The position numbers and the translations under genes are program-made. 64,000 nucleotides of DNA from Escherichia coli (GTDB lineage: Bacteria; Pseudomonadota; Gammaproteobacteria; Enterobacterales; Enterobacteriaceae), in NCBI RefSeq assembly GCF_011045215.1, contig NZ_CP049201.1. One strand, 5' to 3'. The notes under the pieces were generated by a model. The model saw only the letters and a program-made list of their open reading frames with translations. It was not told the DNA's origin and made no database searches. Positions within the stretch are counted from its first letter, which is position 1. Every line of letters begins with the position of its first letter. Below are positions 48,112-51,565 of this stretch, piece after piece.

Positions 48112-49464
48112 TTATGGGTTTAACTCAAACTGTTCCCCGTTTATTAATTTTCGCAATAAGTCAAGTGCCTCAGATGAGTATTTTCCGACACCACTTTTCC
48201 CAGATTTAATGAAAACATGATAATTGTTGTCTGATGCTTTAATGTTGAAGTCGGTTAGTTTTCTTAATTTTTCGAATTCTTGATTAACATAGTGCCACGA
48301 TCCCATGTCGAGAATCCTTGCCAGATCAGACATTGTATATGGGAAACTAGCATTTAGTGCCTGCCCATTATTGAGTTCAGCGATACCATACATTTTTGCT
48401 AATGCATCATCATGCTCTGCAATATTGCGGAACATCTCAAAATCGTATGGAAGTTCTTGTTTAACAAGGGATTCTGATGCGAATGTGTACGTTCTGGCTA
48501 GAAATGCACGCACAAGTTTTGGATTAACGCTAATTTCCGGTGTATTAGATGATAACGCATCAAAAATCCAACCAAAATTATTTGCGTATATCACCTTGAT
48601 TCGAACGCTTTTATTCTCACCAACACCGATTAGCAATTCCTTTTGATGAGAACCAGTGGCCTCGCAGTCCTTACTGAAGGAGACAAGATAAATATTTGGA
48701 ATCAATGCATTATTGGGAGCGATGATTTCATCTATATCAGAGAGAATTGCCTTTATGTTTTCATCATTGATACTGTACCCAAAGAAAAACAAGGGGTGTT
48801 CAGCAAAATATGTTAGCAACTTAGCACTGATATATTTCTTACGTTTATAGAAATCAACATAATCTTCATTTGTAATAACAATACTTTCAACTTCATGACT
48901 GCTACCATGAATTTTCATGATTTCGCCATAAGATGAATAATTCACTTTAACAACGTTATGACCAACTATTGCCTGATAATTGTCAAATATTTTTTCTAAT
49001 GTGTCGTCATAATTTGTTGTGATTATTGCATGAGGTTTTACTTTCCTTAATTTCTGAACTTCCTCTGTATATTCCATGTTCGAGAAATCAACGGAGTTTG
49101 ATAATTCATTCAGAATGGATGCAATTTCATGCTTAATATAAATATCTTTTGGAGTCGTTCCTTCAAAGTATGTCTCTGGATAGCGATCCTTGCCATCATC
49201 CCAAGCCCATTCAGCATAGAAGTCACAAAAATCGCTAGCAATCAAAGGTTTGTTATCACCCTTTGTTTGGCTGTAGTAACCATAAGGGCGTTTGATCAAG
49301 GGGCATATTTCCGCTAGTTGCTTTAATAGACCTTCCCAGTCAGGCGCTTTTATATATCGTTGTGAAATACCTGCACCCATGAATAAAATGGGTTGGACTT
49401 GTAAGTTTTCAAGGCAAGATTTAACATCTTCGATTATTTCTTCTTGATATTCCGTAAAGTCCAT
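48112..49464 (-). CDS. SIR2_2-domain protein (predicted NAD+-consuming defence effector) with uncharacterised ~190-aa C-terminal domain
   Basis: 450-aa ORF with RBS; motifs LFMGAGIS (res 27-34), ITTNYDD (147-153), KIHGS (184-188), FFGYS (227-231) typical of defence-associated SIR2-like domains such as the ThsA/DSR N-termini; ~35% GC. Confidence 0.75.
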   Translation of the reverse strand: MDFTEYQEEIIEDVKSCLENLQVQPILFMGAGISQRYIKAPDWEGLLKQLAEICPLIKRPYGYYSQTKGDNKPLIASDFCDFYAEWAWDDGKDRYPETYFEGTTPKDIYIKHEIASILNELSNSVDFSNMEYTEEVQKLRKVKPHAIITTNYDDTLEKIFDNYQAIVGHNVVKVNYSSYGEIMKIHGSSHEVESIVITNEDYVDFYKRKKYISAKLLTYFAEHPLFFFGYSINDENIKAILSDIDEIIAPNNALIPNIYLVSFSKDCEATGSHQKELLIGVGENKSVRIKVIYANNFGWIFDALSSNTPEISVNPKLVRAFLARTYTFASESLVKQELPYDFEMFRNIAEHDDALAKMYGIAELNNGQALNASFPYTMSDLARILDMGSWHYVNQEFEKLRKLTDFNIKASDNNYHVFIKSGKSGVGKYSSEALDLLRKLINGEQFELNP

Positions 49465-49894
49465 ATAGTTACCTCAGGGATAGGTGATTGCTATGTGATG
49501 CACCGCGAAACGGTTCGGGGCTTTGTGACACCCAAACTTTACCCCGGTTTCCCAGCGTTTCCTTTGTATATAATATCATTGAAGTTAATTGCGTTTCTCA
49601 GAAATCTTCTTAGGATGTGATTGCAATAACGGCAACACAGCGCACACATCGCGGCTGATCAGTGAGTATGAAGTGGTTTACTGAATTTGGCCGCCTGAAT
49701 CGAGAGACAAAATGTCCGCTCCTGGCACTAAGCAGAAGTTCCCGAACAACGTAAGCTGGCATATGCCCTCGTTCCTCCGTGGGGACTATCGATCTATTTG
49801 CCGGTTGTGTTTAAGCAATATCGCCAGCGGCGTGAGCTCTCAGTGCATTCAATCAAGCTCACAAATCACACAGTCTTTACTTTTTTTAGATTCC

Positions 49895-50303
49895 CTAATG
49901 GTTTCGCGTCATAGCCTCAGCCAGATAAACCTGAGCTGCTTTAGGGGTATATGCCTTTCCGAGCATAAAGGATACTGTTTCTATGAAAACTGATCGCGAG
50001 AGCACGATTAGGAGATCAGAACCTGATTTGACATTGATACTGGCTATCAGCGATGGGCAGTTCTCGAATACATCTGACAATCATTTACCTCATTAAGTTT
50101 TATTTCCAGAAGTGCCGTGATCCAGCACGAGTGCTGATAATCAATATCACTTGGGTAATGATTGACAAGTTCACTAAACAACGAGCAGATATTTTAAAAT
50201 TGCCTGCAGCTTCCACATCACCAGGCAGAGGCGTCAGACCCTTAGCACCATACGATTCATAGAGTAATTCCCAATATAGTTGATGCTGAATTTCTTTGTT
50301 CAT
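49895..50303 (-). pseudogene. degenerate or frameshifted ORF pair between the SIR2 and ankyrin genes
   Basis: Minus-strand ORFs 50100..50303 (67 aa) and 49895..50080 (61 aa) in different frames; no recognisable motif. Confidence 0.25.
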
Positions 50304-50352
50304 GTTGAGGCAGTATATTGAAACAATGAGAATGAATCACACATATAAGCTC

Positions 50353-51345
50353 TCACAATCTTCCGCCGTTTTTGACTGTTGCAGATATACTTTTAGCAGG
50401 TTTTAAATGCCTGGAGATTTCTTTCTGTTCTCGACGGATTTTGTATGAATTAATTTCTTCATAATCCTTGTGTTTATTTATTTTTGATAAATCAACCAAG
50501 AGATTATTTCTTATCATCCACTTTACAATTCGCTTGTTGATATCTTTATAGAGAGGGCCGCCTTTATATTTATAGAAGTGAATATCATGAATTTCACTGA
50601 TGAAATCAAGTATGGATAAGATTTCTTTATAATCACCAATGTAACTGTTAATGGTGAAATGGTCTTTATTAAGTTCTATTTTGAATCCATGTTCAGAAAG
50701 GTAATACAAGAAAAAGGCTGAGTCGAGATCACAAAAATCTACATGCAGCGTTCTTCTGTCAAATTTATCAATATGCGAGAGAATGATATCATGTAATTCA
50801 TAATCATATACATTTTCAATAAATCCTTTCCCTGAATGATCAATTTGATTGACATTGCATCCAGCATCTATTGCTACGGATAAAACTTCCGGGGAAAGGG
50901 GCATGAAGAGAATATTCATTCCTTTTTTATCGATGTGATTTATATCACAACCAGCATTAATTAATTCTGTCAATCCTTCAGCATTCCTGTAATGTTCAAA
51001 AATGCATGTGTAGCCATTAGTATCCGTATGCGAGGTGTCTAAACCCAGTTCAATCAGTTTCTTCAGTATTTCTGGATTTTTTTGATGAAAGAGCGCATTT
51101 TGCCCATGTCCGTTGATATGGTGTATATTAATTCCATAACTGAGCAGGCAATCCATGGCTTCCAGGGTTCTGCAGGCAAAAATGGCATTGTTGCCGTTAC
51201 TGTTAACAGCATTGATGTCATAGCCTATTTTTAAAGCTTTCTTTATATCATCAGGTGATCTTGCATTGAAGAATGATTCAGAAATGGCAAGGTCTAATGC
51301 CTTTTCTAATAATCCCTTTTGTAATAAGGATATGACTAATTCCAT
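50353..51345 (-). CDS. ankyrin-repeat protein with uncharacterised C-terminal domain
   Basis: ORF 50353..51357; about five degenerate ANK-like repeats (NSNGNNAIFAC..., NGHGQNALFH..., TNGYTCIFEH..., KKGMNILFMP..., HSGKGFIENV...); second ATG at 51345 has GGGGGTG RBS. Confidence 0.7.
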   Translation of the reverse strand: MELVISLLQKGLLEKALDLAISESFFNARSPDDIKKALKIGYDINAVNSNGNNAIFACRTLEAMDCLLSYGINIHHINGHGQNALFHQKNPEILKKLIELGLDTSHTDTNGYTCIFEHYRNAEGLTELINAGCDINHIDKKGMNILFMPLSPEVLSVAIDAGCNVNQIDHSGKGFIENVYDYELHDIILSHIDKFDRRTLHVDFCDLDSAFFLYYLSEHGFKIELNKDHFTINSYIGDYKEILSILDFISEIHDIHFYKYKGGPLYKDINKRIVKWMIRNNLLVDLSKINKHKDYEEINSYKIRREQKEISRHLKPAKSISATVKNGGRL

Positions 51346-51565
51346 AAACACCCCCATGAAAAAATGTTTAAGTCATTAGATATCAGAAATTCTGTGAAAT
51401 GCAACAGCTGGGGAAAGGTGTTCATGATGTGCGGAATAAAAATTTCCACAAACCACCCGTGGATACATCAGAAACACCTGCAGTAAATTTACGCCTGTAA
51501 CCTGCCGTCCGGACTATAGGACCAAACCTTCGCGGGAGATGCTACCATTACATCGGCAATGTTGA

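Follow-up and report, generated by a model that had tools for sequence, protein, structure and literature searches.

An ankyrin gene of the island backbone and a candidate single-gene SIR2 NADase are most probably neighbours without being partners in Escherichia coli

Two minus-strand genes stand side by side in an AT-rich island within the stretch of Escherichia coli DNA that we analyzed (the window: 64,000 nucleotides of contig NZ_CP049201.1, assembly GCF_011045215.1). One of them (48112-49464) encodes a 450-amino-acid protein with a SIR2_2 domain and the other (50353-51357) encodes an ankyrin-repeat protein. A preliminary description, made from the sequence alone, proposed that the two might form an undescribed sensor-effector defence pair; a homology breakpoint, the distribution of both genes, and their neighbourhoods all oppose that proposal. 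We favour a reading, to which we assign a probability of roughly 0.65 on the strength of these sequence comparisons, in which the locus holds two independent things and no system: a single-gene SIR2 candidate for an abortive-infection hydrolase of nicotinamide adenine dinucleotide (NAD+; hereafter NADase) and an ankyrin gene that belongs to the backbone of the island.

The more solid result is one of organization. A fixed slot beside the ankyrin gene swaps Shedu, Gabija, SIR2-HerA, Old or PDC-S15 with the present SIR2 gene, and such a slot is a ready-made place in which to search for further defence genes.

Two pieces joined at a homology breakpoint

The simpler features of the locus given in the preliminary description bear out. 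Both genes are open reading frames on the same strand; GC content over their bodies is 0.32 to 0.38, compared with 0.51 to 0.56 in ypjA, as befits a horizontally acquired island; the ypjA autotransporter gene, which ends at 47433, flanks the SIR2 gene on the left; and a pseudogene remnant of an IS3 element lies to the right. The usual partners of SIR2 proteins (TIR, HerA, Argonaute and STAND genes) are absent between ypjA and the DUF6387 gene beyond that remnant. What was described as "next to," on the other hand, is a spacer of 888 bp (49465-50352).

That spacer contains a breakpoint. Comparisons by blastn with related loci (designated here by L numbers) part the SIR2 cassette from the ankyrin backbone at 49674/49711. 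The SIR2 side, a self-contained cassette on the minus strand (47984-49674) that comprises the gene, ~210 bp of its own upstream sequence, and ~130 bp of downstream sequence with a terminator, is 73% identical to an unlinked copy at the E. coli hipBA locus (L003, 7794-9471). The ankyrin side (49711-52200), which comprises the 640 bp that follow and the whole of the ankyrin gene together with further backbone, is 80 to 96% identical to islands that do not carry this SIR2 gene. Because the two sides match different loci, the spacer is best read as two unrelated pieces joined at this point. The spacer, the breakpoint, and an upstream region that travels with the SIR2 gene do not fit an operon-like organization. 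We also considered a hidden gene or RNA within the spacer and rejected it: in orthologous regions, stop codons interrupt all of its small open reading frames, and Rfam returned no match.

The distribution of the two genes tells the same story. Across 5,426 complete E. coli genomes, a SIR2 homologue is present in 264, in 42 of them at 99% identity or more and in 221 at ~74%. The ~74% copy lies between hipBA and an ISNCY remnant, alone and without an ankyrin gene, so that 221 genomes carry the cassette at another locus with no ankyrin neighbour. The ankyrin gene is found in 54 genomes, and the whole stretch from 47400 to 52200 recurs as DNA of 99.5 to 99.8% identity in only 40, strain 81 and E24377A among them. 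Co-occurrence as neighbours across genomes had been named beforehand as a test that could refute the pairing, and it went against it: adjacency is confined to one haplotype of at least 99% identity, in ~40 of the 5,426 genomes. Beyond the species, the ranges do not match, with ankyrin orthologues confined to Enterobacteriaceae and the SIR2 family spread over several phyla.

Neighbourhoods examined from either side agree. Our set of SIR2 neighbourhoods comprised 41 loci, which fall into 26 sequence groups at 90% identity, and a hidden Markov model (HMM) of the ankyrin family found a related neighbour at none of the 41. Its sole hit, in Cohnella, is an unrelated protein of 402 amino acids with a lipoprotein signal and an NPCBM domain, whose resemblance is generic similarity between repeats; its gene lies 2 kb from the SIR2 homologue with an opposite-strand helix-turn-helix gene in between, and we judge the proximity coincidental. 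The 333-amino-acid protein encoded upstream of that same SIR2 homologue was likewise considered as a diverged ankyrin relative and shows no similarity (E 0.76). All nine ankyrin loci examined carry cargo other than this SIR2 gene. Literature searches found no SIR2-ankyrin system. Taken together, the spacer with its breakpoint, the distribution within E. coli and beyond it, and both sets of neighbourhoods leave us highly confident that the SIR2 and ankyrin genes do not make a pair. That two genes adjoin in a single genome says little, as this case illustrates, about whether they form one system.

The SIR2 protein and its relatives

Every line of comparison assigns the N-terminal part of the 450-amino-acid protein to the SIR2 enzymes of defence systems. 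The Pfam SIR2_2 profile (PF13289) covers residues 146 to 262 (E 1.5e-23), as the preliminary description anticipated, and SIR2_2 is also the precomputed Pfam domain in all homologues. The hallmark motifs it had singled out are invariant in an alignment of 47 homologues of 44 to 88% identity: G30 and G32 of the Rossmann motif GAGIS, N151 in TTNYD, and H186 in KIHGS. Sequence searches of the PDB align this catalytic region with DSR2, ThsA and KomC and place H186 upon the catalytic histidine of DSR2, H171. An AlphaFold model has an overall predicted local distance difference test score (pLDDT) of 80, exceeding 85 over most of residues 1 to 305, and resolves into a SIR2 domain (~1-305), a helical linker (~310-364) and a C-terminal domain (~365-450). 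When this model was compared with known structures by Foldseek, KomC, DSR2 and ThsA (BcThsA, EcThsA and SeThsA) were matched with probability 1.0 and TM-scores of 0.6 to 0.69 normalized on the target, KomC being the best (E 1e-9, TM-score 0.66 to 0.69 on the target). Pfam, the invariant motifs, the PDB alignments and the modelled fold thus make the assignment to the defence-type, NADase-like SIR2_2 proteins a solid one, and by homology the protein would hydrolyze NAD+.

The C-terminal domain is small (~85 amino acids) and modelled with confidence as three helices, a beta-hairpin and a last helix, in a topology that resembles a winged helix. W390, N413, Y415, H416, K428, Y429 and S430 are invariant there among the aligned homologues. 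A profile search of 1.84 billion representative proteins returned ~200 hits, and all of them are fused to the SIR2 module of the 450-amino-acid family; since the domain is found solely in that company, there is no sign that it has been shuffled between architectures.

The full-length architecture of ~450 amino acids holds over a range that reaches from Gammaproteobacteria to Firmicutes and Planctomycetes, being kept in Vibrio, Acinetobacter, Psychrobacter, Thioalkalivibrio, Paenibacillus, Cohnella and Scalindua. Its carriers are diverse, and many are mobile. The Vibrio homologue sits within an integrase-rich element, the Acinetobacter homologue is an accessory (moron-like) gene of a prophage, and the Providencia homologue holds the same kind of position in a filamentous prophage; 26 SIR2 loci come from viral contigs. 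A homologue of 88% identity (L025, 6062-7414) shares a small islet, which bears an integrase and is flanked by the pyruvate kinase and zwf genes, with the validated defence gene PD-T7-4 (3340-3975, E 6e-95). In Thioalkalivibrio the gene is flanked by an Eco57I-like gene and an Mrr gene, and in Paenibacillus it is chromosomal and adjoins a RelA/SpoT gene. No neighbour family recurs across the 26 sequence groups other than the prophage integrase, which appears in 4 of them.

The cassette brings its own signals. A hairpin followed by a run of U residues, 33 nt past the SIR2 stop codon (48041-48079, minus), resembles an intrinsic terminator: RNA folding gives -22.2 kcal/mol and a z-score of -4.26 against shuffled sequences, and the stem GGCCGCUGC/GCAGCAGCC is followed by UUUU. 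A consensus terminator scanner did not call it. Upstream of the gene (49520-49600, minus; ~9330-9400 in L003), the two E. coli cassettes hardly differ over a block of ~50 nt, GAGAAGATTTCTGAGAAAYGCAAWTAACTTCAATGATATTATATACAAA, and over another, GGGTGTCACA..CCCCGAACCG; both blocks are better conserved than the coding sequences, which are 74% identical. This conservation suggests a promoter, an operator or an element of the 5' leader. Given a conserved upstream block of its own and a strong terminator hairpin, the cassette looks self-sufficient.

Among named families, the closest is PDC-S25. The preliminary description had noted that a match to a named defence family would make either gene known rather than novel, and for the SIR2 gene such a match was found in part: the N-terminal ~330 residues match PDC-S25 models of PADLOC, the top ones being PDLC04968 (E 4.1e-77 over residues 10 to 338) and PDLC04967 (E 5.6e-32), whereas the C-terminal third of the model is unmatched. 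The N-terminal two-thirds of the protein also match PHROG 2695 (phrog_2695, E 2e-72). PDC-S25 resembles the present family in standing alone as one gene that lacks a conserved partner, in being carried by mobile elements or phages, and in sharing the same SIR2_2 catalytic core. Genuine members (519 to 547 amino acids; L050 and L052), however, match the model end to end, over positions 10 to 515 of 517 with 372 to 428 bits, whereas the 450-amino-acid family reaches only from position 10 to between 332 and 381 with 258 to 282 bits; the present protein stops at position 332, short of the C-terminal ~185 positions of the model, and so falls short of the full-length architecture of ~520 amino acids. 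In place of the remainder, the 450-amino-acid family has a different and shorter C-terminal domain that is found nowhere else. Because the family is closest to PDC-S25 and yet lacks its full-length architecture, we class it as PDC-S25-like with a variant C terminus, which is the best reading of these profile matches.

The likeness to DSR1 and DSR2 is one of plan. Those too are single polypeptides with an N-terminal, NADase-like SIR2 domain and a noncatalytic C-terminal region, the catalytic region and the fold match, and the two kinds of protein are likely to share a logic of self-contained sensing followed by NAD+ depletion. The DSR proteins, however, have ~1,000 to 1,200 amino acids and a large helical-repeat sensor that binds the phage tail tube protein, compared with 450 amino acids and a C-terminal domain of ~85 here; PADLOC matches to Dsr1 and Dsr2 are weak and confined to the SIR2 core, and the NCBIfam Dsr2 model (NF041819) gives 18.8 bits against a cut-off of 1400. 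Thoeris ThsA shares the SIR2_2 domain, with structural matches and a PADLOC match over residues 128 to 249 (E 2e-17), but the PADLOC match does not extend past the SIR2 core (profile positions 87 to 213 of 478). Since the present protein has no SLOG/STALD domain and no ThsB/TIR gene occurs at the locus (or beside any SIR2 homologue examined), it is not a Thoeris protein.

KomC of Kongming, the best structural match, and the SIR2 protein of SIR2-HerA (Nezha) are likewise SIR2 effectors that deplete NAD+, but they have ~260 to 350 amino acids and need the partners KomA/B or HerA, none of which is present at the locus. The SIR2-HerA system that strain 873.10 carries in the same slot has a SIR2 protein of a different family. 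The absence of a partner gene sets the locus apart from SIR2-HerA, SIR2-pAgo and SIR2-STAND systems, and searches with PADLOC and Pfam found no fused STAND or other partner domain in the protein itself. We also considered the SIR2 proteins of Vassallo 2022, Rousset 2022 and the Nezha paper as members of the same family; they belong to different ones.

Proposed function and the case against it

How might such a protein work? The cassette is carried by mobile elements, namely prophages, a filamentous prophage and integrative islands, and here it occupies a cargo slot at the end of an island. In our proposal, NAD+ would be hydrolyzed by the N-terminal SIR2 domain, which would stay inactive in uninfected cells. 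An infection cue would be sensed by the protein itself, for which the C-terminal domain, with its invariant cluster of W390, N413-x-Y415-H416 and K428-Y429-S430, is the best candidate, although another surface may serve. Sensing would then activate the enzyme, probably through oligomerization as in ThsA, DSR2 and KomC, and depletion of NAD+ would stop phage replication. A one-protein model of abortive infection is the best supported of those that we weighed, because the two-domain architecture is fixed, there is no partner, the gene is carried by phages and islands, and the slot otherwise holds validated defences.

We regard the part of this scheme that makes the SIR2 gene a defence NADase as reasonably probable. 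The fuller proposal, in which the 450-amino-acid family is a one-protein anti-phage NADase whose ~85-amino-acid C-terminal domain is a new type of infection sensor bearing the W390/N-x-Y-H/K-Y-S cluster, we hold at slightly better than even odds. If it is true, few self-contained SIR2 proteins that join sensor and effector would be smaller; prophages, an inovirus and genomic islands have carried the family into several phyla. An active protein would offer a compact and easily cloned single-gene defence that depletes NAD+ by way of a miniature sensor domain, and it would be useful for understanding how SIR2 effectors switch on without partner proteins.

A number of observations pull against these proposals. 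A Pfam scan with a 23-sequence profile of the C-terminal domain found no match, and a profile search of the PDB returned only non-significant ones (best E 0.05; PadR-like regulators at E 0.24); for this reason the sensing role is a guess. The linker that would connect sensor to enzyme (residues 310-364) is modelled with low confidence. A promoter scan upstream of the SIR2 gene yielded fewer sites than it did on shuffled sequence, none of them a convincing sigma-70 site. In Cohnella (L023, 3529-8362), two co-oriented genes encoding 762 and 333 amino acids stand ahead of the SIR2 homologue, the gap before it being 45 bp; neither product has a Pfam or PADLOC match, and another assembly (L024) repeats the arrangement. 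Here three genes may form a lineage-specific set, and the SIR2 protein may accordingly have lineage-specific partners in places. In E24377A (L001, 12715-14067), the SIR2 gene is frameshifted into open reading frames of 966 and 255 bp. The gene is thus decaying in at least one lineage and dispensable in at least some hosts. The nearest named family, PDC-S25, is itself a single-gene candidate, 1 of 145 computational predictions made by guilt-by-embedding (Payne et al. 2024), and in the literature searched it appears only in a strain inventory. The same searches found no mention of the SIR2 or ankyrin proteins or of their RefSeq accessions.

The strongest alternative for the SIR2 protein is that it is no anti-phage NADase at all, being an NAD-dependent deacylase, an ADP-ribosyltransferase, or a toxin or stabilization factor for its mobile element. 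Its RefSeq name is "SIR2 family NAD-dependent protein deacylase," and the winged-helix-like topology of the modelled C-terminal domain could bind DNA. The Pfam scan, however, matched SIR2_2 only and left the canonical sirtuin family (PF02146) unmatched; in structure as in sequence, its nearest matches are without exception defence NADases (KomC, DSR2 and ThsA); and the patchy, mobile-element-borne distribution, the positions in defence islands and among prophage accessory genes, and a slot otherwise filled by validated defence systems all argue for a defence NADase. We consider this alternative unlikely.

The ankyrin gene, the island backbone and the cargo slot

The ankyrin-repeat gene (50353-51357, minus) encodes 334 amino acids from its first ATG and probably 330 from the ATG at 51345, which is the start in RefSeq and in most homologues; both lengths given in the preliminary description are accounted for. 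The repeats it reported are real, although they escape the profile that it named: Pfam Ank_2 falls below threshold (E 0.012), whereas DARPin and ankyrin sequences match residues ~32 to 185 at E 4e-9. About five tandem helix-turn-helix repeats of 33 residues span residues ~30 to 190, and an alpha/beta C-terminal domain follows (~190-320).

Comparison of orthologous loci shows one side of the gene always lined by DUF6387, a gene of the AlpA helix-turn-helix type and a relaxase, with the other side variable. By this conserved synteny, the ankyrin gene belongs to the backbone of a mobilizable genomic island of Enterobacteriaceae and borders its cargo slot. Three paralogues occur in one island, 29 to 30% identical over their full length including the C-terminal domain. 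Neither of the two copies besides the present gene adjoins a SIR2 gene; the paralogues are placed at 32084-33028 and 33840-34826 in L002 and, within the window, at 63629-63979 (minus), where the gene runs off the end. To keep several diverged ankyrin copies within one mobile element is unusual.

Such retention speaks for a reading in which the ankyrin proteins would be generic modulators of the island, whether anti-defence or establishment factors or regulators of adjacent cargo, with any link to the SIR2 gene loose and non-specific. Defence cargo lies immediately beside two of the paralogues (in the present slot, and as Kiwa in L002 and L021), and conservation of the ankyrin gene, together with the backbone, is strong across genera. 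Searches of Pfam, PADLOC and other families, however, recognized the repeats alone and linked the protein to none of the known anti-defence or regulatory families. Because the slot of Cronobacter (L018) holds a major facilitator superfamily transporter and an alcohol dehydrogenase, the ankyrin gene is evidently kept without defence cargo, and genes that flank hotspots are usually plain core genes of the mobile element. We think a generic modulating role improbable. A dedicated two-gene system, in which the ankyrin protein would sense a phage component and thereby activate or release the SIR2 NADase, is far-fetched in view of the breakpoint, distributions and neighbourhoods described above, even though the genes are co-oriented and no other gene is intact from ypjA to the IS3 remnant, ankyrin repeats serve to bind proteins, and PADLOC includes ankyrin-containing candidate systems, of which PDC-M72A matches the ankyrin protein weakly (E 6e-5), in the repeat region only (profile positions 216-353 of 392, short of a full-length match) and with no PDC-M72A partner gene at the locus.

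The variable slot itself extends from 47749 to 49710, as delimited by homology breakpoints, annotations and PADLOC, and here it holds the SIR2 cassette only. Elsewhere its contents change with the strain (SduA, GajA/GajB, SIR2/HerA, Old and PDC-S15 were called with PADLOC). E. coli ABW_A32 carries Shedu (SduA, E 3e-231) with a HEPN gene and a hypothetical gene (L004, 1852-4779), E. coli 99COLEC carries Gabija as GajA and GajB (L005, 1434-5131), and E. coli 873.10 carries its SIR2-HerA with a restriction endonuclease and a hypothetical gene (L006, 721-5649). PDC-S15 and Old fill the slot in Klebsiella aerogenes (L016, 10143-13581), Kiwa in Salmonella (L021, 1558-3133), and a DUF4365-tetratricopeptide repeat gene, Mrr and a KAP NTPase in Enterobacter roggenkampii (L020, 9178-16427); on a metagenome contig (L017) the slot holds an ASCH-domain gene, an acetyltransferase and an Old-like gene. 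PADLOC had no match for the HEPN and 160-amino-acid genes of L004 or for the 653-amino-acid tetratricopeptide repeat protein of L020, and these could be unexplored defence candidates. A fixed position, conserved backbone borders, and defence cassettes that are interchangeable across strains and genera are the features of the defence hotspots of P2/P4 and of genomic islands.

Both edges of the slot can be traced by blastn. On the outer side, a conserved short noncoding element (47593-47748) recurs at 80 to 90% identity on the far side of the cargo in E. coli (L005), Cronobacter (L018) and Enterobacter (L020); a hairpin lies within it at 47719-47692, and in E. coli genomes free of the cassette, the match to the ypjA flank stops at ~47604. 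It is probably the end of the island or its attachment region. On the inner side, a noncoding or decayed segment (49711-50352) goes with the ankyrin backbone: in L004, L005, L016 and L017 it adjoins the ankyrin gene without a break, at 80 to 96% identity, irrespective of the cargo.

To the right of the ankyrin gene (51610-52957), the annotation of near-identical genomes in RefSeq and the list of open reading frames give remnants of ATP-binding and IS3 pseudogenes and then the DUF6387 gene (52103-52957, plus). Together, AlpA, DUF6387 and the relaxase are reminiscent of the EARL/ROD21-like islands and ICEKp258.2 (PMC10763509), where the relaxase is of the MOBQ type; the paper on the EARL islands makes no mention of the ankyrin paralogues of the present island. 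A relationship between these islands is a lead offered by this resemblance.

Farther along, the backbone is interrupted (56152-60097) by an IS21-like element, with istA at 56924-58591 and istB at 56152-57150, both on the minus strand, and by an adjoining IS4-like transposase gene (58682-60097, plus) that likewise breaks it. The IS21 insertion is missing from strain 81 and is found at a similar place in E24377A.

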